From Massalongia carnosa (taxonomy: Eukaryota), in the NCBI GenBank assembly GCA_965645245.1, contig OZ287072.1, positions 992,001 to 1,056,000 of the forward strand: a stretch of DNA of 64,000 nt, read 5' to 3'. The position numbers and the translations under genes are program-made. This document shows, one piece after another, positions 9,893 through 62,182 of the stretch; the stretch's first letter is position 1, and each line of letters begins with the position of its first letter. The notes beneath the pieces were generated by a model. That model saw only the letters and a program-made list of their open reading frames with translations, was not told where the DNA came from and ran no database searches.

Positions 9893-11773
9893 CTACGCAG
9901 GAACCGCAGCGCCATCACCCCTAGGATCGCTACCACCACTATAAACATATTTTCCGTTTTCCCTATGACATCGAATGACTTGACCACAACCAAAGATTCC
10001 GCGCCCGTAGCCTTTGACTATTTCAACGTTATGGCCTAATACTCGTAACTGCTTGACTACCTCCTCACCTATCCCCTCTTCGAGATAAATAGTCCGATCA
10101 AGCACTTTGCCTTGCTCAGGAGTTCCGGCGCCGATGCAAAACCTTGGTGCGTCCAAAGCTGCCTGTGGCGTGTGTCTAAATGCCAGCATGTTGAGAAGCA
10201 CTTGAACATGACCCTGAGGTTGCATGAATCCGCCCATGACGCCATACACCGTATGCAAACTTTGGTCGTTAGAATTTGTAACTATAGCAGGAATGATTGT
10301 ATGATATGGTCTCTTTCTAGGAGCGTACGCGTTTGGATGGCCTTCCTGAAGGTTGAAATTTGCAGCTCGACTCTGCAGAGTGAAGCCGCAACCTTGGGGG
10401 ATTATGCCAGTGCCAAATTTCCCGTAAACGCTGTTAATGAATGAAATTGCATTGCCAAACCTGTCTGTGACAGCAAAATAAACCGTGTCACAATGATTAT
10501 GGGCAGGTGAGCCGTGATCGATAATATCAGAAGCCTTGTTCGGATCAAAAAGGGTTGCTCGTTCAGACAAGTAGGAACGAGAAATCAGTTCCTTACTGGG
10601 GACTCGCTCGACATTCGGATCTGTCACCCACCAACTAGTATCTGCAAAGGCTATGCGAAGGCTCTCAATCACAGCGTGTAGATACTCTGCGCAATTGTGT
10701 TCACCTTCGATGAAGGTCCTTATCCTTTGGGTTCGCTCAAGCTCTTCTAAAATACCTAAAGCCATGAGTGCAACGATCCCTTGCCCATTAGGAGGGTGCT
10801 CCCAAACCTCTAAGCCTTCTGTCTCGTCGGATTTACCAGCTTGGCCATCCTCGGCTCCTGTTGGCGCTTTGCTTATATTTTGGCCATTGAACTTGAGTGA
10901 AATAGCATCTACCTCTTCACTGCCTAGATCAGCATGGTGCTTAAGATCCTCCATGGTCAAATGACCCCCAAGACCCTGCACAACTTGAATCAAGGAAGTT
11001 GCAACTGGGCCCTCATAGAAGCCCTTTTTACCATTCTGAGCAAGAACTCTGAAGGTATTGGCTAGAGTTGGATTCTCAAATAACTCTCCCGGACGCGGTG
11101 CGCGTTTGCCATCTGGGGCTTTATTATCTGATTTCAGCATTTCACCAAAATGAGGACATGCATCACGAATATGCTTCTCGCTGGCTTGCCACTGGAAAGT
11201 GTTATCATTCGTATTTTGCCTCCTTCTTCGCACACTTACAAACCTTGATGCAAGCTCGGAGACAGGGAATCCCTCTTCCCCAAGCTCTATTGCCGGAGTT
11301 AGAATCTGCTTTAAAGAGAGCCTTTTACTACCAAACTTTTCCACAGTATCTATCCAACCGGCAGCAGCACCGGGCGTTGTAACTGAGTGTACACTTGACA
11401 TGGAAATTGTTCCAGGTTGGCCTGGCTTTAATCCTAAATCGCGACGCAATCCTTCCAAACTTGTATTAGCAGGAGACCGTCCAGACCCGTTTAGCGCATG
11501 AACTTTTTTTGTTTTTGCGTTATAGAACAAGCAAAACATGTCACCCCCAATACCTGTTGAGGAGGGTTCAGTCATGTTCAATGCTGCAGCAACTGCGACT
11601 GCAGCATCTGCAGCATTACCCCCATCCCGAAGAATCCTTTGTCCTGCCTGTGCAGCCAACGGTTGTGTACATGCTATTATTCCTTGAGTACTATGTACAA
11701 CACTTCGTCTGCTAGGAAAGGCTATGAAGTCTGGGTCCAGTGAAGGATATATAGCGTTCGCATTGAGTGGCAT
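9893..11773 (-). CDS. Gamma-glutamyltranspeptidase family protein (Ntn-hydrolase), in-frame 48-nt intron at 11192-11239
   Basis: GGNAADAAVAVAAAL, EPSSTGIGGDMF, PPNGQG, the autocleavage Thr in DTVYFAVTD, KRPYHTIIP, GVMGGFMQPQGH and SDPRGDG. Confidence 0.93.
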   Translation of the reverse strand: MPLNANAIYPSLDPDFIAFPSRRSVVHSTQGIIACTQPLAAQAGQRILRDGGNAADAAVAVAAALNMTEPSSTGIGGDMFCLFYNAKTKKVHALNGSGRSPANTSLEGLRRDLGLKPGQPGTISMSSVHSVTTPGAAAGWIDTVEKFGSKRLSLKQILTPAIELGEEGFPVSELASRFVSVRRRRQNTNDNTFQWQASEKHIRDACPHFGEMLKSDNKAPDGKRAPRPGELFENPTLANTFRVLAQNGKKGFYEGPVATSLIQVVQGLGGHLTMEDLKHHADLGSEEVDAISLKFNGQNISKAPTGAEDGQAGKSDETEGLEVWEHPPNGQGIVALMALGILEELERTQRIRTFIEGEHNCAEYLHAVIESLRIAFADTSWWVTDPNVERVPSKELISRSYLSERATLFDPNKASDIIDHGSPAHNHCDTVYFAVTDRFGNAISFINSVYGKFGTGIIPQGCGFTLQSRAANFNLQEGHPNAYAPRKRPYHTIIPAIVTNSNDQSLHTVYGVMGGFMQPQGHVQVLLNMLAFRHTPQAALDAPRFCIGAGTPEQGKVLDRTIYLEEGIGEEVVKQLRVLGHNVEIVKGYGRGIFGCGQVIRCHRENGKYVYSGGSDPRGDGAAVPA

Positions 11774-12157
11774 AGCTGTAGAGGACTTGTGAATAGATAT
11801 TCATGGATTGAAAACATGAACTATTCCATTAACCTGCTGAGCGATCAACGAGTGTACTATGTAAATGTAGTCGTTAGTAACAGAAAATAACACTAAGCCG
11901 GTAGAAATGCCGGGCCACTAGACCATCTAAAGTTAGAGGTCTGATACTTTTTGGTTAAAATGTCAAGTTCATCGGCGGTTTATTTTTCATAGCAAAAGCC
12001 TCGAAGCAGCTAAACGCAATTTTTGTGGCATTGTGCTATGTCTTTATTTTCTAACGAACGAAATGTTTCTTCCATATACGTTATAATAAGAGTGGGCATT
12101 GAATATAATTTCCTATGATTAGGTTGGCTGGATTACAAGGCAAAGTCCCTTCATAGC

Positions 12158-18000: not shown

Positions 18001-18353
18001 TTGGGTAGGCAGGAAGAGAGGTGGGCAGGTGAGTTTATGTATGTAGCTAGGTGAACTAGGTGAACTAGGTGAACTAGGTAGGTGCCTGAGTAGGGCAGAG
18101 GGTCATGTTAGGGCAAGACAAATAAATGCCCGTTGGAGGCAAAAAGAGCTCCTGTCCAGCTGAAGCCGTTTGCTCACATTCAAAAGAGAGTCGATGTCTC
18201 ACTTCTTTATCATTTTTCGTATTTTTCTGCTGGTCAAACATTCGGACTTCATCATTTATATTCAGCGCTGGTACGTTCGGCGTCTTCTCTCGCGTCTTTC
18301 TTCCTACACACGTCCATCCACTAATTACCTCAGCATTTCATCTTCAGCCCCTC

Positions 18354-20455
18354 ATGCGGTCCTTCACTTATCCCTATCGTCTGCTATCAGTCCTGGTGAC
18401 GTTGATTGGAGCTCAAGCTGCTGTGACTTTTGTTTCGAATCTTGTCGTGCTTGAGAGCTTACCGGCGGTTCCGCAAGGATGGCGCCAAGGTGTTTCCGTG
18501 CCTGCGCAGGAACTTCTGAGATTTCGCATCGCACTGAAGCAGGAGAACGCCTTTGCTTTTGAACAACATGTAATTGACATTAGCACCCCCGATCATCCCA
18601 AATATGGTCAGCATATGAAGCGTGACGAACTTAAAGCGATGTTGCGCCCCAGCTCCAACGCCTCAACAGCGGTTTTGCAGTGGCTCTCGAAGGAACATGT
18701 CCAGACTACAGATGTTGAAGATGATGGCGACTGGATTAACTTCTCCGTGGCGGCGGCTAATGCTGAGCGGATGTTGAATACCAAGTTTTATTACTACACC
18801 GGCTCCATGGGCAAAACCATGATAATCCGAACTCTTCGCTATTCCGTCCCTGAGAAACTGCACCAGTACGTTCAAATGATTCAGCCCACCACTCGCTTTG
18901 GTGAGATCCGTTCACAACACTCGACACTTTTTAAGCAATTTGATATTGGTCCTGCCAGGAACGCACAGGCTTCCTATAGCCACAACGCTGGCTTTAATGC
19001 TACGTTCTGTAATTCCACAATCACCCCGGACTGTCTCAAATATCTCTACAATTTCGCAGGGTATGAATCCAAGCCAAATAAAGGTATATCCTTCCCTCGG
19101 GGATGCTGTAATCTCGACAAAGATGGATGTAGTCAAGCTGACACGATCCAGCCAATATCATCGGAGTCGGTGGTTTCTTGAAAGAATACGCACGATATAA
19201 TGATTCCGCTGCGTTCAAGAAGAAATATGCGACATATGCCGAGAATACGACCTTTGAATATGTACTGATAAACGGTGGCCTAAACAAGCAAATCGACCCG
19301 GTCGATGACTCCAGCGAGGGTAACGTGGACGTGCAATACGCGTATCCTCTCAGCTATCCGGCAAGAGCCATATATTACAGCACTGGTGGGCTTGGAGAAA
19401 TAGTGCCTGACAACGATCAACCCGTAGCCGCTCACAATTCAAACGAACCTTATTTGGACTTCTTGCACTACCTTTTAGCTTTACCCGACAACGAGTTACC
19501 TACCACGCTAACTATTTCCTACGGCGAAACCGAGCAGAGTGTTCCTAAGCCTTGTAAGTGAAGAGTTCTTTTCATTGACCATCTGCTAACTCATCGCAGA
19601 CAAAAACCAAACCTGCAGCCTCTTTGCTCAACTTGGTGCGCGCGGTGTTTCTACTCTCTTCTCTAGCGGCGACACTGGTGTGGGGAGTGCATGCCAGACC
19701 AATGATGGGAAGAATGCTACTCGCTTTCTGCCCGAGTTTCCTGCCTCATGCCCATTCGTTACGGCGGTTGGAGCGACTTATCATGTTGAACCTGAGCGAG
19801 CCGTTGCTTTCTCATCTGGTGGATTTTCCGATTTCTTCCCTCGACCGACGTATCAAGACGCTGCGGTAAAGCAGTACCTTGGTATACTCGGGGATAGATG
19901 GACGGGCTTGTACAATCCCGAAGGTCGTGGCATTCCGGATGTTGCGGCTCAGGGCTATAATTTTACAGTTATTGACCAAGGCCGACAACTTAAGGTTGGC
20001 GGTACAAGGTAGGCTGAGCGTTCAAGCAGTCCTCGGAGTTGGATCAAGTACTAATCCTCTTAAGCGCTGCTGTCCCAACCTTTGCAGCAGTCATCTCCCT
20101 CCTTAACGGCGAGCGAATCTCTTCCGGGAAACCTCCTCTCGGCTTCCTTAACCCTTTCATTTACAGCGTCGGCTTTAAAGGGCTCAATGACATCGATGCC
20201 GGTGGATCGAACGGTTGCAACGGTAAAGATCAATACTCCGGCCTCAAAACGCCTATTGTTCGGTATGCGAGCTGGAACGCCACCCAGGGCTGGGATCCAG
20301 TCACCGGGTACGGAACACCTAATTTTCGAAAGCTATTGGCCATTTCCCGGCATTACCACCGCCGACAAGGAGCCGCCAGCCGGCCAAAGCTAGGGTATGC
20401 TCCAATTTCGGAGTATGAGTACTATCCTGCTCCGAAATGGGGTTACGGAGGGTGA
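18354..20455 (+). CDS. Secreted tripeptidyl-peptidase / sedolisin (peptidase S53), 4 exons
   Basis: Signal peptide, pro-domain ([12 protein letters not shown]), [10 protein letters not shown], catalytic EGNVD, oxyanion [25 protein letters not shown] across an intron, and the Ca-site [13 protein letters not shown]. Confidence 0.93.
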
Positions 20456-21280: not shown

Positions 21281-22946
21281 TCACGTCTTCTCAGTCGTAA
21301 AACCCCCCTTCTCCGTCAAACTTCCAATCCTTCCCAGCAGAAACTCTACCTGCCGATACGCCGCGCTAGGCGCATACTGCGGCACCATGTGCCCCGCCAA
21401 ACTCACCTCTACCCATGTAAGGCCGCGTTCAGTATGCGTGGTGCCAAACACCCCAGCCCCGGCCAGGGTCTCGAGGCTGGCATCTTTATGGTAGGGCACG
21501 AAAAACTCATCCGAAGGCTTTTCTTGGAAGCCTTGAAAGCCATGCCAGGTCATATTTTGGATCATGAGGAGGGTGCCGTTGGCGATGAGAATGTAGTCGA
21601 GGGCGCCGTGGGCGATGATGGTGCGGTTCAGGCCTTCGATCACGCTCGGGAGCACGGAGAGACCGCTAGGGGGGGAATCGTCCTCAGTCAGCACGCCACT
21701 GGAGCATTCGGTCCACGGCTGGATGGGGGCGTTGATGGCCCTTTGGACGTCGGTTCGGTTGAAGTAAATTTCCGCGCCTGAGGGGAGGTAATCGAAAGAA
21801 CCTGGGAACCCGAGCACATCCCAGAGGAGCGGGCAGGTAGTGGCGATTTGGTAGATGTCGAAGCAGGGGTTTATAAGCGAGACGGCGTTGTAAATGTCGC
21901 CCCAGATTTCACAGCCTGGGGCTTTGGAGTCCGGAGGCGAGGGGAGGGGCCCTTTTGGCGGGTAAACGAGACCTTGGTTGAGGAAGGAGGTATAGTTGCA
22001 GGCGTCGGCTCGGGCGTGGATGTTGGCCGTGAATGAGGCGTTTAGGGAGAAGAGAGGAGCAAAACTGTCCACATAGGCGACGGCAGGGACTTTGTGGGTT
22101 CTTGGCATTAGTGGCCGGCTTCAAAAATAGGCTCACTTTGTTGACCTACTTTCTTCTTGAACGACGTCCAAGCTTGTGCTTGGATCGTAAATCAGGATTG
22201 ATTCCACATCATAGTACCCTGTATCATTTTTCTTCAACATTGCGTCTGCTATATACGGCACGTAGTACCCTGCATAGCTTTCGCCTGAAATAAACACCTT
22301 TTTGTGATGCAGGTCAAAGGTGTCCACAAAATTCTTGAAGAAGCCAAGAAATTGCGCAGCCACGTCATGTTCGTTCTTTGCGGTGGGCTTCCCTTGCGAA
22401 AAGCCTGTGCCCACAGGCTGCTCGACCCAGACCACGTTGGTCAAGTTTACCCAAGTGTACGGGTTCTTAACAGGCTTAAAAGTACCGTACTGCCATAGGA
22501 ATGGCCCGTTCTCTTGTAATAATCCTTCCAAAGAGCTACAGCCAGGGCCCCCGTTGAGCCAGATTGTAATTTCATCCTGTGCTAGTGGGTTCTGAGACGG
22601 AAAATACCAAAAGTAGAGCTTCCGGGTTTCGTTGAATTGATCCGAGATTGGCAAAAGGCCAGCGTACGATTCGCCGATGTCGAAATCAACATCAGGGATG
22701 GCTGTACCATTCACCACAAACTCTATGAAATCATTAACACAGCGGCTTCGTGGCAGCATTGGACATACTTTGTGTTTTTCTATTAAGATGTCTTGGAGCA
22801 AGCTTCGCTATTGATCCCGTATTTCCTTCTATTCTGGGCTGAATTCTAGATTCGGGCTTTGACAATCTCTTGCCAACATGTTGTGGGCTTCTTGCTGCCA
22901 CAAGGCAGGCTGTAGTAAGCAGGCCGAGGTATGTAAAAGCGCGCAT
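21281..22946 (-). CDS. Secreted serine carboxypeptidase (peptidase S10, CpdS-like), 3 exons
   Basis: Signal peptide [40 protein letters not shown], catalytic GESYAG, HGALDY and AGHMVPQY. Confidence 0.93.
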
Positions 22947-24272
22947 GATTTAGATGATACCACAGACAGTCTAAATGACTTAAGAAAAAGGGACATTCTT
23001 TGAAAGTTTTGGGAAATAGCTGCCTTTAACCTCTTCATGGCCGACAACCTCAGCTGCTGCCTCAGTAGATTAGATCGCTCTAAGGTACCGACGTTATTGC
23101 AGATCCTGATCTTGGTTGATCTAGAATCAGCATACTCAATTACGCGGTAACTGAGAGCAGGGTGAAGCTGTTGTCGGAGATTCGGAGGAGGCGAGGTAGG
23201 CATTATCATGCTGGATGACTGGCTTTCCACATATGAGAGGCTCCTTTGTCCTATCAAAAGCTTCTGTACTTGACGCATGATCCGCAAGCTCTTTTTCTAG
23301 ACCTTCCATTTCGAGCCGGTTCCTTTCGTCTCTACTCTTTTCTGTCGTCATCCAAATCTTATCTGGAAGGTCAACAAAGTTTATGCAGCAAGACGTAGGC
23401 TTGCTGGTGAGTTGCTGCCCTTACCGAGACAGCAAGCTTATTTCATCATGAACGAATGCCGAGAACTATCAGTGTACGAGGAAAGACTTTGGGGTTTTTA
23501 TAGAAATTGTCTTTTATTGCTTTATCTTGACTAACTTGTCGCCAGCCATTCTTCTAACTTGCTCTACCTAAGATGCACGGAATAACAATCGAGATCTTAA
23601 AGCTCAAGCAGAAATCGCTGCAGGATGTTGCTTTGCTGTCTTACTAGTGGAGAAACGACAAACACATATGTTGTGCTCCTGCCGCAACTGGCCACATATC
23701 TGCAAAGCTAACCAAGATGAGACACTATCCCGGACTGATTGGAAGATCTTTGAGGATGATATCGGCTGACGGAAACGATGCTTTCACACCATATTTTAAG
23801 GAAGGAAGCTAAAGATATGATATAGCAGTTCGTATGATAGGGACTGGAGCACTTCAATCGGCTCCTAAAGCTATGAAGACCGGGTTAGGTTGAGTATCAC
23901 GAGTATGTAGAAAAAGACGGCTGGAGCTTTTGCTGCTCGTGTGGATGGATGTCCGCGCGGACTGCGGAAAAAAGGATGGGCAGTTCCACTTTCGTGCCAG
24001 AACCTCAAAAAGGCTTAGTTAGCGCAGCTCTCCAGTGGAAAAGTCGTGTAACTGTAGTCGTTAGCGAGGTACAGAGTACCTTGTACCTTGGCACTTGGGA
24101 AGAGTTTGATGATTGAGACTCCTGTGATGTTTGCGATGTCTGCTGTGGTTCAGGCTGCGACAGTTTATGGGGCACTGATGCGTGTAGAATCTTTCGCTTC
24201 TTGCAGTCACAGACTAAAGCCAGGACAATTTCCACGCTGCTGGCATAGATAATCAAACAGGCTTATTTGGAC

Positions 24273-26030: not shown

Positions 26031-27082
26031 TTAGGGAGGAGGATCAAGTCCAACAATATTGCTTGGTCTCCTCATAACCCGCCGTGGGGCATTATGCTTC
26101 TCGCTCCACTCAACAACGCCATCATAATTTCGGCACCGATGCAAAGTGTTGAAATTCGGCCATGGAGTTTCCCTCCTCGAGACCCAGCTGTGGGTGATAA
26201 CGCCAACATCAGCGTCACAGGTTATCTTTTGCCGGAGCATTTCAATACAGTGGTCTAGACAGCATAGCGTATCAGCCTTGTACTATTTTGTAAAAGATCG
26301 TCAAACTAACCGACGTGAATGCGGAGCAACTCGGGCGGATCAGTGAAGGTGAGAGAGCGATTTTGATAGTATTCTGGGTACGTATACTCGCGGATTAAAT
26401 TCTGGTATTAATTTCACGTGTCAGTATTGAATGGTATCGATGTTTTCAACTCTGAAATCTGGTTTAAGACTTACCAGACAGTGCATTTGATGGTAAACCT
26501 CAAGACCGGCGAAGATTCCCCCGCCTTGGCTCTCGTCCAACCTAACGACGTTCTCTGTCAAGGCATGGCCGAGCTTCATGAATTCTTCTTCTGATATGCT
26601 GAAGGCTTCGACTACGAACGCATCTTAGCTCGTACGCGCCGTTAGAGAGAAATATACGTACTTGATTCTTTTCTGACCAGCGTCTCCCATGCAGCGTCGA
26701 GAGACGGATTAGGTGTCCCTCTGAACGGAGAAGGCCAGTCGAGTGTACCGTTGAAAAAGTATGTCTGGTAGGGAAGGATGGCGGCTAGCGCAGGGGCTAT
26801 ATTGCTTTTAGCATACTGGCTTCGTCGAGCATTGATCTACTGACACCAGGTGTTTTCTTGATTGATACAGTCAAGCGAGGATGTAGAGCTGGATTTAAAG
26901 AAAATGATTGTGAAGATGCTAGATATAATTGCAAGATAGGACAAGTGCGTTATCAACAACAGGTAGGTTGGGTTCTTTTGTGTTTGTATCTTGGTTTCAT
27001 AGGACTCTTCCAAGGACAACAAAGGCTGTGCCGATGATTTGCTGGCATCTGCGACATAATCTTGATAATGACCCATCTTCAT
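26031..27082 (-). CDS. UstYa-like / DUF3328 oxidative macrocyclase, 274 aa; exons 27082-26845, 26796-26662, 26611-26475, 26401-26311, 26254-26031
   Basis: Manual splicing gives an uninterrupted frame: N-terminal TM helix (YLLLITHLSYLAIISSIFTIIFF), SPFRGTPNPSLDAAWE, LEVYHQMHCLNLIRE (HxxHC 1), IHVDHCIEMLRQKITCDADVG (HxxHC 2) and PNFNTLHRCRNYDGVVEW. All introns are GT-AG. Confidence 0.95.
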
Positions 27083-27398
27083 ACGAAAACCAGGTGTATG
27101 AGACTGTTGCTTTGATTGTTTTAAATGGAGAGAGGGAAAATTTTCGAGTTGAGAAATGACTTAATGCTTACCTGCATCTAGTGCATTATTTGTATTGCGC
27201 TCTCCAGTACCCCGCACAAAGACGTCAGGGCGAAAGCTCACAATAATCATCTCACCTAACGCATGGAGACATGCATTGCTTACAGGTGTTGTTGGCTTGC
27301 GGCACATCTTTTCCATGGCAGAGAAGGTCAGACTTGCAATTTCGGGTGAATGGCAAATCTTAGCGCCATATCAGAAGACAATCTGAGAGATTTAGGAA

Positions 27399-27588
27399 TA
27401 GAGTGCGATCGACAATGCGTCGACTAGCTCATGCTGTAAGCTCCTAAACCACACCAAGTAGAGCTTGATAACCCGAGTCTAAACAAATTGACTAGAGTGC
27501 GATTAAGAATGCGTCGACTAGCTCATGCTGTAAGCTCCTAAACCACACCATATAGAGCTTGATGACCCGAGTCTAAAAAATTGACTAG
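27399..27588. repeat. Tandem duplication, 2 x about 94 bp, in the divergent intergenic region
   Basis: TAGAGTGCGAT...AATGCGTCGACTAGCTCATGCTGTAAGCTCCTAAACCACACCA...CCCGAGTCTAAA...TTGAC begins at 27399 and again at 27493 with a few substitutions. Confidence 0.9.
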
Positions 27589-28806
27589 GGCTGCAGAGCA
27601 ATCCCATCATCCGCGTCTTACTGCACAAGTGGCTGGTATTGTACCCTGTGACGCAAGCCTCTTACAATAATTTCAAGCAACAGACGGATTGGTTGAGTAG
27701 AGGCACCTGTGTTTCTCAACATGCAAATCCATACTGGAATAGAGATTCGATAAAAGGGTACGGCGGCTTCCAGTCTCTCAGAAAACTAGCTTCATGTATG
27801 GGTCACAATCAGTAGAGGCTAATTCAGGGGAATATTGACCTTTACCGTCGGCGGAGGACGTAGTAAAATGCTCTTGTATCTTGCCGCTTGCTATGAAAAG
27901 AAGGACTAACACAGACTGAGTTGGAGTTCATCAGTGACCAAATGGGAAACGAACAGGAAAGCGGTCAGACACAGAATCGTTGGAGCAGTGACGCTTACTG
28001 TCAGCAACCCTTAAAGAGACTTTCCCGCGCGGCAGTTTTCCCGCACTAATACATATTCGGCTCATCCCAAGTCTTGATCTACAACACCCTTTCCTCATTT
28101 TGCCTCTGGAAGCTCTCGAATATTGTGACATGCGGCATAAAGAGTGTAGAAGCTTTCGTAGCAGTCAGTGCCTATGGAACGGTTAAAAGGCTACAGAGTA
28201 ATCGCCTCACCGCTCTTTATAGCGGCCGGCCATGTATCAGCAGGCTCTTCTTCTGATGCAGAGCAGACGCATTATCCCTAGCCTTCAACGCCTCAGGTGA
28301 TATCCCAATGGTTGGCATCTTCCTTGGACTCACGATACGGCTTTAGTATCTTTTTGACTTCGGACCCACGCGAGCCGTTATCGTGGATTACTTTGATTAG
28401 GAAACAAAGACACCTCTCCGTGAATGATACTCGACAGCAAGGGTGTCGCAGGCGGCCCGATCATCCCATGCATCTCATTATCTTATAGACTCGTTGTTCA
28501 CCGCTACTGCTGTTTAGCTGCCGCGTAATGGTAGACGTGCGTCACCTTATTATAGTGCAGGGTAGGTAAACAGCGTGTCAGTGGCCAAGGTCGCTTGCAG
28601 CTGAGCAGAAATTATGTCGCGCTGACTTGTGGGTGGCAAAAATTCATCTAAAAGTCCTTAAAGCCCGGGTCATTCCTTTTAAGAAATTATATTACTCTTC
28701 AGATCACCATTCAAGTCCCAAACTGCAACAACTTTCCTCTTAGCACAATAGAACAGATATCTCGATCCTTCTTTATCTTCCTAAACACCTCAGCTGTGCC
28801 TTAATC

Positions 28807-29324
28807 ATGCACTGTCAACCAATTCTTGCTCTTGTACTCGGGCTCGCTACCCTCGGCATCGCAGCACCCATCCTTGAGCCAAGTCAGCGGCCCAGGTTCC
28901 TGTAGCGAGTATCACTGACAGATTTTCAGCCGATGCTGTCAAGCGTGAGGCCGAGAACGATCTGCAGTACAAGTACGGCAATTACGCCGGCGACAAGCGT
29001 GAGAACGAGCTACAGTACAAGTACGGCAATTACGCCGGCGACAAGCGTGAGAACGAGCTACAGTACAAGTACGGCAATTACGCCGGCGACAAGCGTGAGA
29101 ACGAGCTACAGTACAAGTACGGCAATTACGCCGGCGACAAGCGTGAGAACGAGCTACAGTACAAGTACGGCAATTACGCCGGCGACAAGCGTGAGAACGA
29201 GCTACAGTACAAGTATGGCAATTACGCCGGCGACAAGCGTGAGAACGAGCTACAGTACAAGTACGGCAAATACGCTGGCGATGAGGAGGATGTGAAAGAC
29301 AAGGATTTCAGTGCTTCCGTCTGA
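28807..29324 (+). CDS. Kex2-processed repeat protein / RiPP precursor peptide, 156 aa; exons 28807-28882 and 28930-29324
   Basis: MHCQPILALVLGLATLGIAAPILEPTDAVKR-EAENDLQYKYGNYAGDKR-(ENELQYKYGNYAGDKR)x5-ENELQYKYGKYAGDEEDVKDKDFSASV*. Signal peptide, a 47-nt GT...CTGAC...CAG intron restoring the frame, and KR sites between repeats. Confidence 0.93.
28953..29282 (+). repeat. Coding tandem repeat, 48-nt unit x 7 (last unit lacks KR)
   Basis: Unit GAGAACGAGCTACAGTACAAGTACGGCAATTACGCCGGCGACAAGCGT. Units start at 28953, 29001, 29049, 29097, 29145, 29193 and 29241. Confidence 0.97.
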
Positions 29325-29729: not shown

Positions 29730-29995
29730 CGTGGGTGCAGCCAGCACTCTGCAAACATATTGGAATGTGTTTTGCTTAGTGCGAAAGAAAGAGACAGGCT
29801 GTCAGGAGATCGATCCGCTCGTCAAGAGCCAAATGCAAGGAGTACGCGAGCGCCTTCTCACATATGTCCCTCGCTGACGGGGAGCAGGTGAGACAGCAAC
29901 TGACCATCAAATATTGGTTACGGACGGAGAAGAAGAAGCCGATCATGCGTGCCGAGGATGAGCTCGAGCTCCTTAAGACCTTGGTGAGAAGCTGA
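29730..29995 (+). pseudogene. Fragment of a DUF3435-like (tyrosine recombinase / Starship captain-type) gene
   Basis: After removing a 46-nt intron (29842-29887) it reads AASTLQTYWNVFCLVRKKETGCQEIDPLVKSQMQG-VRQQLTIKYWLRTEKKKPIMRAEDELELLKTL and then breaks off. This resembles the N-terminal region of fungal DUF3435 proteins as I recall them. Confidence 0.55.
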
Positions 29996-30021
29996 CCAGG
30001 AGCAAGACCATAGATACGGCC

Positions 30022-30829
30022 TTGACAAACGTTATCGATTATGACGGTCTTCGGGCGCGCCAGGCTATGCTGCCAAGCAATGACATATGGACCTTCAACA
30101 TTTTTCGCCTCTCGGCCACCTCCCAGCCCTGCGCCTCCCATAATAGCACCCTCATAATCGCCTTTGTCCACAACGAAGACCACTACCGCAACACGCACCC
30201 ACAACAAGCCTGTTCCTACAACGCCGTCGGCGTCCGCTACAGCACCGATCTCGGCTGCTCTTGGACCCATTCCCTTCCGATCCTGCCCCTCGACATCCAG
30301 CGCGACGCCGCGAACTGCTACGCCGAAGGCAGCATTGGTGACATGGCCGCGGCCTGGAACCCGCTCAAGAAGCAATGGGTCATTCTCGCGCAAGAAGCGG
30401 GTGGGCCCTTCGCTATGAGCGTCTCTAGCGACCCGCTTGCCTCTCCCTCCTCCTAGACGCGCATCGATCCCGTCAGCGGTAAGACCGGCCCCGGGTTCAA
30501 GGGCGCGGCGCTCCCGCACGGCGATTTAAGCGCTGTATCTGGGAGCAACCCCGAGTACCATCCGCGACGAGAAGAATGCCTGCTGGCACATCGTATACGC
30601 GCGCTGGGGCGGCGGGTTAGCCTACAGCCGGAGCGTGGATCTGCAGCGGTGGGAGAAGCCGGTGATGATGTATCAGGGCGAGGGGGGCGAGGGCCACGTA
30701 AGATATCGGACGTTGGTCGGCGATGGGGGGGGTACGTTGACGACGGATGTCACGGCCATGTTGTATTTCGGTAGCGATATAAAGATTGGTGGCGGGAGGG
30801 CGTTGTGGGGCGTGAAGATTACATTTTAA
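30022..30829 (+). pseudogene. Disrupted beta-propeller / Asp-box (BNR) glycosidase-like gene
   Basis: GC-rich coding-like sequence with AFVHNEDHY, Asp-box YSTDLGCSW and SVDLQRWEKP. In-frame TAG at 30454-30456, an apparent frameshift near 30555, and no proper N-terminus. Confidence 0.6.
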
Positions 30830-32912: not shown

Positions 32913-34694
32913 CAGTCGAACCCCGCTATAGGGAAGTTCCGTATAACGAAAACCTCGGCATAACGAATTTATTTCTCGGATTTTTTGTAGTTATATGGTA
33001 AAAACCTCGTCTCAGGCTTTTTGCCCTGATGATCAGTTGAGATGATTTACGTCTTGACCAGATGAGGTGAAATGAATGGCATTGATCTATAGATGATTTT
33101 CTAGCTAGGTATGCCGCCATGGGATAGATCAAGAGATGTCTCCGAAGGAAGAAAGAATGTGGGGGATGAAGAATTTTTACCTGTGCCGCGGTGGCAATGT
33201 CATGTGACGGGCATGTGACGGGCCCGTTGACCAATGTTGGTTAATGCCAGACATTTGACACCTCGTTATAACGAAAAACCCTCCATAACGATATAACGAA
33301 AATTATTTTCAAACTTTTGGTGACGTTAGTTATAGCGAGGTGATAAAGCTGTCATATATTTGCTACGATTCTGCTGTAAATATGTCTCGAGAATGGCCTG
33401 CCTTCATGTCTTTGTCAATTTCCCCCCCCCGAAAAAAAACCCGTCATGGAATCACAAATATTCAGCGAAAAGCTCTTCGGGACTGGTACAATGATGATTC
33501 AAAGGATAAAGTGACTCAGAACGACTGTCGCATGTGGTGGAAAAAGGGAGTATAAGTATGTGCCTGGGAGTGGATTTATCAACGAGATTCTCAGTTCCAA
33601 ATATGCTTATCTGAATGATAAATAGGAGGCGAGCTCAATCAAATGAGAGATTATTCTCAAATGACCTGTGTTAAAAAAATGCTGTGTTCGAATGAAAGCA
33701 ACGATATGAACAGGTCAGTCTCACTGTTAATGCTGAAGTACTACGAATCAAGGTCATCGAATTGTGAAACAAACTGCCTTAGTATGAAGGCATTCCCACT
33801 CCGAAATGGAGCAACGACTGGCTAGATCGATTTAAAAGACGACGAGAACTCAAACAACGCATTTATCATGGCGAGGCTGGTTCAGCTGATCAAAGTGAAA
33901 ATGTACAGCAGATAATGACTGATCTTCGTAAATTAGTATCTCAATATGCTGTCAAAGACGTTTACATATAACATGAATGAAACAGGGCTTTATTGAAAAA
34001 TGGCACCCGATCGATCTCTTGATACTGAGAGGCACGCCGATCAGAAGCAGGATAAGATGTGTTTTTCACAGTAAGCTGCTCATACAGAACTGCTGAGGGC
34101 GATCAGGAGTCATTGATTGAGGTTCAGCACTCTTCAATCAATCAAGAACCTCGGAATGAATCGAGTTCGAGACTGTTTTGGAAAAGATTACACAAAACAT
34201 ACGTCAGATGCAGGTCATGGATAGAATAGAAGAGCCGATGAACATTCATCAATTTATAAACCCGCTCGAGGAGGCTATAGGGGACACGAATGAAGACATT
34301 ATAAATGATGTCGTTTCACGATATGCGGAGCAGGAAAGGCTCGCTGAAACGAATGAAGAGATGAATGTTATACCTGTTATAACGGTGAGTCAAGCATAGG
34401 AGGCTTGTAGGATTCTGAGACTGCATGAAGAACAGCAGTTGAAGGCGATATAGACATGCTTCATCAATTACGAAGACATGAACGGGGGCTGTTTGAAAGA
34501 CGGCAAAAGAGTCAAAAACAAGCCACTCTAAGCACTTGGGTAGTTGCTGGGGACAAAGGGGGAGAATTGGGGGTTTTTAGGGGGGCAAAGTAGTAAATTT
34601 ACCATGATTTCCCTCTCCCCCGATATAACGAAAAACCCGCTATAACGAAATTATTTTGGTAAAACGCCACCATCGTTGTGGCTGGGTTGGACTG
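32913..34694 (+). mobile_element. Degenerate pogo/Tigger-like (Tc1/mariner) DNA transposon, about 1.78 kb, TA TSD
   Basis: Ends TA|CAGTCGAACCCCGCTATA ... TTGTGGCTGGGTTGGACTG|TA, with subterminal TATAACGAA repeats. Broken transposase remnants of CENP-B-like HTH/DDE type (ITNIQRKALR, NDWLDRFKRRR, HGEAGSAD, NMNETGLY) carry stops, frameshifts and an internal deletion. Confidence 0.85.
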
Positions 34695-59240: not shown

Positions 59241-62182
59241 TCATGTCTCAAGAAAAGTGCCCGCTTGTATAGTTACTGGTTCTGTATGACCAAAATAAAA
59301 ATGCCAAAGTCGGCTCCCTTGCTTGAGCAATTCCACCGCAGCTTGCCGAACGTCTGAGCTGTCTGTATGTGTTTTTGATGTGTACACCTCAGTATAACCA
59401 ACTAAACAGATAACTCGTCTCTTCGGGTCTACAAGGCAGCGCCAGCTCCCAGGGTTTTTTACCATTCCTGTACACATATGGCTGATAGGAACGCCCTCCG
59501 AATGTTCCGTCAAGGCCACCCTCTTCAGACCTCTAGTATATTTTGTGGGCATACCTCCCGCGTATGTCCTTGCATGAAGAGCCTGCGTTGCAATGGGTTA
59601 CGGATATCAAAGGTTGCCAAGAAAACCACTTTTCTAGAAAGGTCAAAGCTTTCATATTCCATTGGGGTTTATTGTTGCAGTTCGTTAACGATACCAACAC
59701 GGTGGCTAACTTGAGGCCTTGCACCTCCTCCACAGTCTGAACTTGACGGTTGCCGTCAACGCCGGTTATACCAAGCTCCATGTTTGATCCGCAGGCAGCA
59801 ACGATTGTGACTATCGTACTGTTATAAATGGTACGCATTTGCGTAAGCTGGTGACTTCTCGATTCGAGATCCTCCTGAAAAATGTAAAGAGAAACCAACC
59901 CTCCGATATCGTTCTCTCAATCACGCTCAAGAAAACAGGCAAGGATGACTATTCGGCCCCGAACGCCTATCGACCCATAGCACTCCTAAACACGCTTGGA
60001 AAAGTAATGGAATCCATCATGTCAAAAAAAACCCATCTAGCGGAAACCCACCGACTCCTGCCCGACACCCAGATGGGCGCCAGACGAGGAAGATCAACCG
60101 AATCTGCACTAGAATTGTTGACTGAACAAATTTATACAGTGTGGGGCCAAGGCACAGACAAAGTAGCCACATTATTGAGCATGGACGTAGCAGGAGCCTA
60201 TGACACAGTGACACATCGAAGACTGATTCACAATCTTCGCAAAAGGAAAATCCCAAAATGGATCACTGACTGGGTGAACAGTTTTCTAAATGAAAGAAGC
60301 ACTACCCTGGCGATTCACAGCCGAGTCACGGGCATATTCGATGTAAAAACCGGAATCCCACAAGGCTCCCCCATTTCTCCTATTCTTTATCTGTTCTACA
60401 ATGCAGACCTACTAGACATATGTGAAAGACCAGGCAGCAACACGAGTGCTCTAGGCTTCGTAGATGACATCAATGTGCTAGCATACGGAAAAAGCACCGA
60501 AGAAAATTGCAAGACGCTAGAGGTAATTCACAAAAAATGTGAAAAATGGGCAAGTCGACATGGTTCAGTCTTCGCTCCGAAGAAATACGAATTGATACAT
60601 CTGTCAAGAAATCCGAAGAAATTCAACATGTTCACTGTTATTCAAATAGGAAATAACATCATAAAACCAAAGACAGACATCAGAATTCTAGGACTTCAAA
60701 TCGATTCAAAATTGAAATGGGGTGCTCACACAAGGAAAATCCAGGAAAAAATGACAAAACAATCCAGGGCATTGACAAAAATATCCACCTCCACATGGGG
60801 CGCCACTCTTCTAAAGGCACGCCAGGTTTACACCGCCGTAGTCCGGCCGGCCATGACGTACGGCTCTACCATTTGGCACATGCCAAAAGAAATTCAAAAA
60901 TCAAACGTCATCTCAAACAAACCGACTGTCATACAAAACAAATGTCTAAGAAACATAGCCGGAGCCTTCAAAGCAACGCCCATAGCTGTACTAGAAGCAG
61001 AGACATTTATAGCCTCAATTGACATTCATTTAGATCAACTACAGGCCCAGACCAGACAACGCCTGTGTCGAAATGGTCAAAAGAGTTTCATCACAAATGC
61101 ATGCAACAAAATAGCCAATAAACTTCGAGGTCGGGCAGGACGCAAGAGGGCCCCAGTCATCACTCCAGGAACGCTGAAATACGCCTGGGCCAAGAGAATC
61201 ATATCGGAGGCACATAACCCTCCAACACCGACACCAAATCCACCATGGGGCGAATCCCCCCCGAATCTCGCCCGAGAAATAGGGGAGGCACGCGCCGCTC
61301 ATAACAAAATAACTGCTCAAATAAAAAAACTACACACATTTGCATGGCAGGCCTCGTGGAGATCATATCAGGAACGCACACCCGTTCCCACCCCGGCACA
61401 ATCAGGTTCACTCTCCAAAAAACGCATCAAATTGCACGAAACTCTAGCCAAAGCGGAGAGTGCGCTAGCCATTCAGATACGCTCAGAAAAGATAGGCCTA
61501 GCCGCCTTCCTACATAGACACCGAGTCCCAGACGTCTCGTCCCCGAACTGCTCATGTGGCTGGCACAAACAGACTGCAAAACATGTGATCATGTTTTGCA
61601 AACTCAACGACAACAGAAAAACTCTGCTAAATACGATAGGCACAAACAACTATCGATTAATCACTGAATCATCTAAAGCAATGAAATTAGTCACAAAGTG
61701 GCTAATGAAGACAGGTTTGTTGTCACAATTTTCGCTGACAGCACAGCATCTATACTGCTAACAGTAGGCATGCTTTGTTTCATTTTTCATACTTGTCTTA
61801 GGTCAAAGGTTTTTTCATGGAGCATACGGCTGGGACCCGGAGGGTCCTCGGCTGGACACAGGATTGCATGGTTTTTCTTCCTCAAGGTTTTCCATGTACT
61901 ATAAAACTAGATAGACTCGCCCGCATGGGCCGGCCTTCGGCCGGTACCACATCGGAATAAGAATCATCATCATCATCATCATCATCGTTCTCTCATGGAT
62001 TGAATAAGTTTTATCGCATGCTTGATGGTATTTGGCAATTTTCGCGGTAAGCGGGTCTGCAATTCGTGATCTTTGGATTGTGCAATCTTGTCTTTCGTTG
62101 CTTGGAAGCTTTCCAGGGTCAATTTGAACCCCCTGTAACTTAGCACCACGTATCGATAGCCTTGCCGAAGCTCTGATGACAT
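59241..62182 (-). pseudogene. HET-domain (heterokaryon incompatibility-like) pseudogene split by a LINE insertion
   Basis: Right of the LINE: YVVLSY...LPNTIKHAIKLIQSMRERY. Left of it: SLYIFQEDLESRSHQLTQMRTIYNSTIVTIVAACGSNMELGITGV. These are consecutive HET motifs, with additional frameshifts. Outer limits are approximate. Confidence 0.75.
59920..61983 (+). mobile_element. 5'-truncated Tad-like non-LTR retrotransposon (LINE), 2064 bp; RT-coding frame open to 61761
   Basis: RT motifs YRPIALLNTLGKVME, LDVAGA-type MDVAGAYD, GIPQGSPISPILYLFY and GFVDD. C-terminal CxC...H...C knuckle, (CAT)n tail, and TSD ATCGTTCTCTCA at 59908-59919 and 61984-61995. Confidence 0.95.

Follow-up and report, generated by a model that had tools for sequence, protein, structure and literature searches.

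A divergent precursor and oxidase gene pair

We analyzed a 64,000-nucleotide stretch of the Massalongia carnosa genome (contig OZ287072.1 of assembly GCA_965645245.1, positions 992,001–1,056,000 of the forward strand; hereafter, the window, in whose own numbering coordinates are given) and found two divergently transcribed genes, 1.7 kb apart and with start codons facing apart: a two-exon gene for a repeat-containing peptide precursor (28807–29324, plus strand) and a five-exon gene for an oxidase of the UstYa/DUF3328 family (26031–27082, minus strand). Given that both genes are intact, that their pairing is conserved, that every Tyr as well as Lys2 and Gly4 of the repeated core is conserved, that the copper motifs are present and that the oxidase is constrained, we hold with high confidence that the two form a functional pair for a peptide that is made on ribosomes and modified after translation (RiPP), with the oxidase acting on the precursor. 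Every feature of the dikaritin class of RiPPs that can be looked for at the level of DNA was found here, and the locus very probably specifies a new member of the ustiloxin/asperipin class of cross-linked peptides.

Exon 1 of the precursor gene (28807–28882) comprises the start codon and signal peptide and encodes MHCQPILALVLGLATLGIAAPILEP plus one base of the next codon. It is followed by a predicted intron of 47 nt (28883–28929) that runs from GTCAGC through a branch-like CACTGAC site to a terminal CAG, GTCAGC at 28883 being the sole GT donor that fits the phase of the CAG acceptor at 28929. Exon 2 (28930–29324) encodes a pro-region with KR at its end, then the seven repeat units and an acidic tail, and closes with a TGA stop codon (29322–29324); the spliced coding sequence of 471 nt corresponds to 156 amino acids plus the stop. 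The signal peptide was called by inspection rather than with a predictor, from a 13-residue hydrophobic core and the small residues at −3/−1 before the second Ala of IAA; this is typical of a secreted protein with an N-terminal endoplasmic reticulum signal peptide, as the precursor is predicted to be.

The repeat array lies within exon 2 at 28953–29282 as seven units of 48 bp (Tandem Repeats Finder: 28953–29281, period 48, 6.9 copies, 97% matches, 0% indels, score 623), with codons in the coding frame beginning at 28953. Unit 1 is ENDLQYKYGNYAGDKR, units 2–6 are five copies of ENELQYKYGNYAGDKR and unit 7 is ENELQYKYGKYAGDEE, and the array follows EN[DE]LQ-YKYG[N/K]Y-AGD-KR. An original prediction, made by a model from the letters of this DNA, had described each repeat as an acidic leader (ENEL/ENDL-Q) followed by YKYGNY and AGD-KR. 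That description is exact for units 1–6 (EN[DE]LQ-YKYGNY-AGD-KR, 16 residues each, with five residues before the hexapeptide and three after) and fails for unit 7, which has Lys at core position 5 (YKYGKY), lacks the KR and continues into the acidic tail. Because a KR also stands upstream of unit 1 (..DAVKR-EA-ENDLQ..), all units but the last are bounded by dibasic Kex2 sites, and this anatomy, with KR after six of the seven units and before the first, is that of a Kex2-processed repeat protein (KEP).

As expected for tandem repeats, the array is open in all three frames and on the opposite strand, so the coding frame needs independent support. The frame that begins at 28953 is taken to be real because it is spliced to the upstream signal-peptide exon, because its differences from an orthologue (contig L001, described below) fall mostly on third codon positions, and because the neighbouring gene encodes a UstYa oxidase.

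The oxidase gene was assembled from four minus-strand stop-to-stop open reading frames (ORFs; 26031–27160) and a short fifth exon, with four predicted GT-AG introns of 48, 50, 73 and 56 nt. Its 274-residue product is colinear with two database proteins of 274 residues at 71% (P0003) and 70% (P0005) identity. Exon 1 (26845–27082) encodes a disordered N-terminus and a single transmembrane helix. Exon 2 (26662–26796) is 82% identical to its L001 counterpart and matches PF11807 (UstYa/DUF3328) with E = 0.0018 and 18.6 bits, a score that for this piece alone is below the 25-bit cut-off. Exon 3 (26475–26611; PF11807, E = 9.2 × 10−8) ends in the first copper motif, HQMHC (26478–26492; residues 165–169), the last codons of exon 4 (26311–26401) start the second, HVDHC (residues 199–203), which spans intron 4, and exon 5 (26031–26254; PF11807, E = 3.5 × 10−20, 73.2 bits) supplies the rest of that motif, Cys213, Cys241 and a TAA stop. 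In all, three of the five exon pieces match PF11807 in Pfam, within 26031–26836, and the protein has Cys at positions 72, 169, 203, 213 and 241.

The window oxidase retains all columns that are invariant in a 32-sequence family alignment (W114, H163, H166, C167, R172, H197, C201, R206, C211 and C239 in P0003 numbering, where H163, H166 and C167 are H165, H168 and C169 of the window protein), and H200 of P0003 is conserved in at least 90% of that alignment. An AlphaFold2 model of the orthologue P0003 based on the alignment (mean predicted local distance difference test score 75.8) has a disordered N-terminus, a transmembrane helix at 39–61 and long helices at 160–174 and 191–212 that bear the HxxHC motifs, in agreement with the architecture described for CctR in the accessible sections of PMC12435403. 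Those sections credit CctR with establishing DUF3328 as a family of binuclear-copper, O2-dependent, disulfide-linked homodimers, and describe its enzymes as activating C(sp3)–H bonds using copper and O2. Neither a sequence search nor Foldseek (0 matches at E ≤ 0.001) nor VIA-align (best Z 4.4) returned a solved relative of the oxidase. The copper features of dikaritin enzymes, namely HxxHC(x)nHxxHC, a single transmembrane helix and conserved C-terminal Cys, are all present.

The oxidase is alone of its kind at the locus: tblastn with the spliced protein found a single UstYa locus in the 64-kb window, as the phrase "one oxidase" in the original prediction had implied. Pfam scans detected no tyrosinase, methyltransferase, cytochrome P450 or second UstYa in 65 of the 75 ORFs of at least 110 amino acids across the window (the ten left out being antisense overlaps of annotated ORFs and three repeat frames) and in 68 of the 73 ORFs of at least 50 amino acids in 23.1–31.6 kb (the other five being covered by an earlier scan). 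UstYa was the sole Pfam domain found in 23.1–31.6 kb, and the nearest major facilitator superfamily gene lies 17 kb off.

Conservation of the pair and its sister systems

A metagenome scan with the oxidase alignment returned 79 loci, among which L001 and L002, near-identical contigs from two assemblies, carry an orthologous precursor and oxidase in the same divergent layout, with one UstYa-matching locus each (tblastn; 19.6 kb of L001 and 15.8 kb of L002). The signal-peptide exon of the precursor is conserved in L001, where it encodes MHYQPIFVLVLGLTAISIAAPILEP; the L001 intron sits at a position matching that in the window, and the four L001 units are VNDLQYKYGRYAGDKR, two copies of VNDLQYKYGKYAADKR, and VNDLQYKYGKYATSEG.., with the core YKYG[R/K]Y. 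For the reading frame to continue across it, this intron (L001:8167–8213, minus strand) requires a GC donor (G|GCAAGT), where the window has a GT donor. Among all window ORFs of at least 70 amino acids, the precursor and the oxidase are the only ones that match L001/L002. The flanks of the pair differ, consisting of housekeeping genes in L001 (Mad3/BUB1, DNA polymerase phi, a rhodanese protein and SLD5) and of an S10 carboxypeptidase, a sedolisin and a protein kinase in the window; since the two genes alone are shared between these differing flanks, the conserved unit is just the two genes. The region between the divergent start codons (27083–28806), presumably a shared promoter region given the same layout in L001/L002, measures 1724 bp in the window and about 1712 bp in L001. 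Its DNA showed no convincing conservation against L001, the best block being 25 nt at 84% identity (E = 0.009).

The oxidase is under purifying selection: between the window and L001, over 270 aligned codons, the synonymous rate (dS) is 1.13 and the nonsynonymous rate (dN) 0.142 (dN/dS 0.13), and all three exon variants found in the oxidase in run X4 are synonymous. For the precursor we compared 11 units, seven from the window and four from L001, the four of L002 being identical to those of L001 and not counted twice. N(−3), L(−1), Q(0), Y1, K2, Y3, G4, Y6 and A7 are invariant in all 11, despite synonymous turnover in the codons for N (AAC/AAT), L (four codons), K2 (AAG/AAA), Y3 and Y6 (TAC/TAT) and A7 (GCC/GCT). 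Variation is seen at position 5, which is N, K or R, and at −4, which is E or V. A third relative, a 536-nt contig of about 90% identity from run X6, contributed one readable unit with the core YKYGTY; the differences in its other units were too near the ends of aligned pieces to be counted. In that unit K2 and L differ by synonymous changes, while three residues are replaced: E by D at −2, N by T at position 5, and D by E following the core.

The 1/3/6 spacing of Tyr residues pointed out in the original prediction is therefore real and kept in the orthologues, in all 11 units of the window and L001 as well as the X6 unit, and at the point that had been named beforehand as able to refute the prediction, conservation of the Tyr positions, we found all three Tyr invariant with varying codons. 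The invariant block N-x-L-Q-YKYGxY-A is, however, longer than the hexapeptide, so conservation alone marks neither the cross-linked residues nor the boundaries of the core; that these boundaries cannot be read from the DNA had been stated at the outset and holds.

Searches for the precursor in protein databases gave little. No homologue at E ≤ 0.001 was found among 4822 word-sharing candidates of 71–228 amino acids, and a HMMER search of 1.84 billion representatives gave 80 matches at E ≤ 0.001, of which the 12 inspected contained no N-x-L-Q-YKYGxY unit. These 12 are mostly unrelated repeat proteins or periodic noise, but they include three Kex2-repeat precursors of other kinds (P0065, P0077 and P0107). 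Of the words sampled from the 64-kb stretch, 80% occur in a run labelled "lichen metagenome".

The oxidase, by comparison, has many relatives, and the closest all belong to lichen-forming Lecanoromycetes (Teloschistes flavicans, T. hypoglaucus, Heterodermia speciosa, Caloplaca, Xanthoria, Kuettlingeria, Piccolia and Sarcosagium), with orthologues in two orders, Teloschistales (Teloschistes) and Caliciales (Heterodermia). Together with the metagenome run, these relatives assign the window to a lichen-type ascomycete. We built a maximum-likelihood tree of 32 rows, comprising the window protein, four rows assembled exon by exon from DNA, and 27 of 39 database proteins; P0001, P0002, P0014, P0015, P0018, P0021, P0022, P0024, P0027, P0029, P0031 and P0039 were omitted as partial or near-duplicate. 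A query-anchored alignment made from tblastn matches that read through introns was rejected because the window reached a self-score of only 77%, and exon-wise matches were used. The window oxidase falls within a lichen-only clade of 12 rows (support 100/99), inside a subclade A (99/99) that unites it with L001, L002, the Heterodermia protein and both Teloschistes proteins. Loci L005 and L024 are placed as the sister of subclade A with weak support (88/79), and the proteins of Kuettlingeria, Caloplaca and Xanthoria fall, with a second one of T. flavicans, into a subclade B (96/92). AprY, UstYa and UstYb are not among the 37 listed oxidase homologues, all of which are unnamed or "hypothetical".

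The sister enzymes also adjoin repeat precursors. In L005 and L024 the precursor (L005:7731–7994 and L024:7859–8389, both minus strand) lies 2 kb from the oxidase (about 10001–10845 in each). The secreted precursor of L024 has eight units of the form [DE][VL]ARPY-x-x-Y[SG]E[ED]KR, the last of which ends two residues past the second Tyr, and each has exactly two Tyr in an i/i+3 arrangement, a spacing equal to that of Tyr3 and Tyr6 in the window core. Exon 3 of the oxidase is 84–93% identical within subclade A (91% between the window and L001) and 45–47% identical to L005/L024, versus 56–80% for the other exons, and this exon (26475–26611, running up to the first HxxHC) may be a substrate-specificity region. 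The complementary spacing occurs farther afield. A KEP at L075:2347–2967 (minus strand), 1.1 kb from a very distant UstYa homologue, has the cores KR-YEYGDTPA.. and KR-YQYKDTP.., and the protein P0065 has KR-YKYTDTPAD; these cores start right after KR and have Tyr1 and Tyr3 and no third Tyr. Y-x-Y and Y-x-x-Y thus each occur alone beside UstYa genes, and the window precursor combines both spacings.

A separate family emerged from the same scan. At 12 of the 79 metagenome loci (L011, L012, L013, L054, L056, L058, L059, L015, L019, L025, L026 and L049), Tyr-free repeat precursors with a His-His motif (..EPHHKGKG.. or ..HHTEAQIAAKKAKA..) stand beside UstYa homologues, with the repeat ORFs 2–3 kb from the UstYa match. 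Judged by its genes, this family would be dikaritin-like without any Tyr for an ether link.

Predicted chemistry of the product

We propose that the window holds a two-gene dikaritin-type RiPP cassette of a lichen-forming ascomycete. According to passages of PMC7329392, UstYa enzymes modify dikaritin precursors within the secretory pathway and Kex2 cleaves them; here, the precursor would enter that pathway, the binuclear-copper UstYa oxidase, anchored in the membrane, would modify its seven units in the lumen, Kex2 would cleave after each KR, and exopeptidases would then trim the flanks. The oxidase would abstract Cβ hydrogens and couple Tyr phenol oxygens to them twice per unit, forming a 14-membered ring from Tyr3-O to Cβ of Tyr1 and a 17-membered ring from Tyr6-O to Cβ of Tyr3. 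This would yield a bis-cyclophane that contains Lys, is cationic and shares the topology of asperipin-2a and selanine A. That the modification is a Tyr ether cross-link we consider probable; that it closes two rings per unit, in the 1–3/3–6 pattern, is our preferred reading of the cassette and is put forward tentatively.

In asperipin-2a, which served as the template for this reading, the links join residues 1–3 and 3–6 in 14- and 17-membered rings. The original prediction had adopted that numbering and had described the compound further as a FYYTGY bicycle made by a single DUF3328 enzyme, which agrees with the passages of PMC6514808 and PMC7329392 on ethers between Tyr side chains and β-carbons. 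Copper, which it had named for an assay of the oxidase, fits as well: parts of PMC12435403 describe DUF3328 enzymes as copper-dependent and AprY itself, the asperipin cyclase, as reconstituted with copper and O2. The asperipin-2a pathway of Aspergillus flavus (aprA, aprY, aprT, aprR) resembles the window cassette in pairing a secreted Kex2-repeat precursor with exactly one DUF3328 enzyme, in a hexapeptide whose first, third and sixth residues are aromatic, the latter two being Tyr, with a Gly within the second span, and in the lack of a tyrosinase or methyltransferase. The cores differ, FYYTGY in asperipin versus YKYGxY here, with Phe in place of Tyr at position 1 and Tyr in place of Lys at position 2. 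Selanine A, a plant burpitide made by a BURP-domain copper cyclase, is likewise a bicycle, a Leu-Tyr-Tyr di-ether with macrocycles similar to those of asperipin-2a; its copper enzyme, with four planar His, is unrelated in fold and kingdom, and any resemblance would be convergent.

Several observations weigh against the two-ring reading. To go by the available parts of PMC12048977 and PMC12435403, the reactions of DUF3328 enzymes also include hydroxylation, halogenation, desaturation and transacylation, so the chemistry does not follow from membership of the family. With an invariant block longer than the hexapeptide, Tyr conservation could reflect recognition by the enzyme, and cores with a single Tyr pair exist in related KEPs (KR-Y[KEQ]Y[TGK]DTP in L075 and P0065, or Y-x-x-Y only), so one ring may suffice. 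The likeness to asperipin-2a is one of a single oxidase and of 1/3/6 spacing. What stands of the proposed asperipin-like locus is the pair of a precursor and a single UstYa; its units are 16 residues long with an invariant N-x-L-Q before the core and A after it, against eight residues bounded by KR in AprA (according to the passages of PMC7329392 on that precursor), and no counterpart of the reductase aprR or the transporter aprT is present near the cassette or syntenic in L001. In length the units are closer to those of ustiloxin (13 residues) or phomopsin (14 residues) than to AprA, and YKYG resembles the Y-x-I-G of ustiloxin, whose link runs in the opposite direction. Finally, in the exon 4 region of the L002 oxidase (L002:10323–10612) the sequence reads YTYQDY*QNRS, in which a stop in frame replaces a Tyr of L001. 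L001 and L002 have identical precursors, and the stop is either an assembly error or the mark of a freshly inactivated copy.

Closest to the two-ring reading is a single ring per unit made by the same cassette and the same ether chemistry, joining Tyr6-O to Cβ of Tyr3 or closing between Tyr1 and Tyr3, which we regard as possible though doubtful; the leftover Tyr would in that case serve recognition or be free, like Tyr2 of asperipin-2a. Natural examples would not be lacking, as all eight units of L024 have just the two Tyr at i/i+3, L075 and P0065 carry Y-x-Y only, and epichloecyclins use a single DUF3328 enzyme for a single ring, and the flanks, being invariant too, show that a residue need not take part in cross-linking to be conserved. 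The epichloecyclin cluster of Epichloe (gigA, the DUF3328 gene gigB, the methyltransferase gene gigC and kexB) is moreover that of a symbiotic ascomycete, in which a Lys- and Tyr-containing core is trimmed from longer repeat units; it differs from the window cassette in its 27-residue units, its single ring of unsettled chemistry and its dedicated kexin and methyltransferase. One ring would nonetheless leave one Tyr that is held invariant despite synonymous codon turnover and a dS above 1, and a single DUF3328 enzyme is reported, in the accessible parts of PMC6514808 and PMC7329392, to form both rings of asperipin-2a.

Chemistry other than the asperipin-type ether is unlikely. It could take the form of Cβ hydroxylation, desaturation, halogenation, a link in the ustiloxin direction from the aryl oxygen of Tyr1 to Cβ of Tyr3, a biaryl, or a Tyr–Lys link through Lys2, and would accord with the wide reaction range of DUF3328 enzymes, with a Lys2 and Gly4 as invariant as the Tyr residues, and with the way YKYG mimics ustiloxin Y-x-I-G. 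The characterized dikaritin rings described in the relevant part of PMC7329392 are, on the other hand, ethers of Tyr (or Phe) to a side-chain carbon, and a ustiloxin-type link is accompanied in its cluster by a tyrosinase and two UstYa genes, where the ORF scans and tblastn above found neither a tyrosinase nor a second UstYa. Comparison with UstA and PhomA, the precursors of ustiloxin and phomopsin, shows shared traits, namely a KEP core that follows an acidic N-flank and is separated from KR by a short C-flank, and a Tyr-x-X-Gly/Pro pattern with Tyr at position 1. Those systems differ in having Ile at core position 3, where the window has Tyr, and in employing two (UstYa/UstYb) or five (PhomYa–e) UstYa genes, a tyrosinase, a methyltransferase and many tailoring genes, against a lone UstYa here. 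With its YKYG core, one UstYa and no tyrosinase in the 65 + 68 ORFs scanned, the locus is not of the ustiloxin type.

That the precursor instead yields linear secreted peptides, for signalling or another function, while the neighbouring oxidase serves something else, is very improbable: 78% of KEP genes lack a DUF3328 neighbour according to the survey figures in the accessible part of PMC7329392, yet the pair alone is conserved between two otherwise unrelated genomic contexts with its divergent layout and spacing kept, and sister enzymes also adjoin Tyr-rich repeat precursors.

For the preferred reading, calculated [M+H]+ values of the linear, −2H and −4H forms are 807.3672, 805.3515 and 803.3359 for YKYGNY; 918.3992, 916.3836 and 914.3679 for pyroGlu-YKYGNY; 878.4043, 876.3886 and 874.3730 for YKYGNYA; and 1663.7234, 1661.7078 and 1659.6921 for ENELQYKYGNYAGD. 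With regard to the flanks, E-N-E-L-Q, in which a single Leu stands amid acidic residues, offers an analogy to how split burpitide precursors of plants are recognized, through a lone hydrophobic residue flanked by charged ones (PMC12186524). A broader suggestion, speculative and rather doubtful, is that the lichen-restricted clade of lone UstYa enzymes reads Tyr spacing as a ring code, making one 17-membered Tyr-O/Cβ ring on RPY-x-x-Y and two rings on Y-x-Y-x-x-Y. The cationic all-Tyr bis-cyclophane would on this suggestion be convergent with asperipin-2a and selanine A, and N-x-L-Q would be a recognition sequence as in plant split burpitide cyclases.

Novelty and genomic surroundings

About five dikaritins have been linked to genes so far (PMC10512285). 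The accessible part of a survey of RiPP clusters in 111 lichen genomes (PMC12048977) reports UstYa signature genes everywhere and gives no precursor; the survey has "asperipin-2a-like" signature genes, and its supplements might list the window oxidase. In the literature searched we found no lichen dikaritin precursor, and a full-text search for YKYGNY, YKYGKY, YKYGRY, YKYGTY, QYKYG and RPYDDY returned none of them, with YKYGN appearing only in three unrelated papers. In the supplements of the KEP survey neither YKYG nor QYKY was found, nor was the positive control FYYTGY, so that blank is uninformative.

Precursor and enzyme are both explicit at this locus, and the pair is conserved in lichen metagenome contigs. 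At about 3.3 kb the two genes are compact enough to be transferred to a host on a single fragment, which makes them a practical way of obtaining a first lichen RiPP. They also offer a natural second substrate/enzyme pair for the question of how one DUF3328 copper enzyme picks the Cβ and the phenol that it joins, with the simpler Y-x-x-Y core of the sister clade as a built-in comparison. Should the ring-code suggestion prove true, this two-gene pathway would be the smallest dikaritin pathway known, and its peptide the first lichen RiPP with precursor and product both known.

The surroundings of the cassette include three genes for peptide-processing enzymes, within 17 kb upstream of the oxidase: a gamma-glutamyl transpeptidase (9896–11800, minus strand), a sedolisin with a Pro-kumamolisin activation domain (18126–20452, plus strand) and an S10 serine carboxypeptidase (21284–23296, minus strand). 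We considered them as candidate trimming enzymes and rejected all three as conserved parts of the cassette because none is syntenic in L001/L002. A sedolisin fragment at the contig edge of L005 (2–514) has no detectable similarity to the sedolisin of the window. The gene directly downstream of the precursor (29977–30829, plus strand) has no Pfam match and is not syntenic in L001; Asp-box-like motifs seen by eye (..YSTDLGCSW..) suggest a BNR/sialidase-like propeller. Two transposon remnants lie farther to the right, one at 33289–33968 (plus strand) with Tc5/pogo-type helix-turn-helix domains (HTH_ABP1_N and HTH_Tnp_Tc5) and one at 59788–61758 (plus strand) with a 657-residue reverse-transcriptase ORF (RVT_1).

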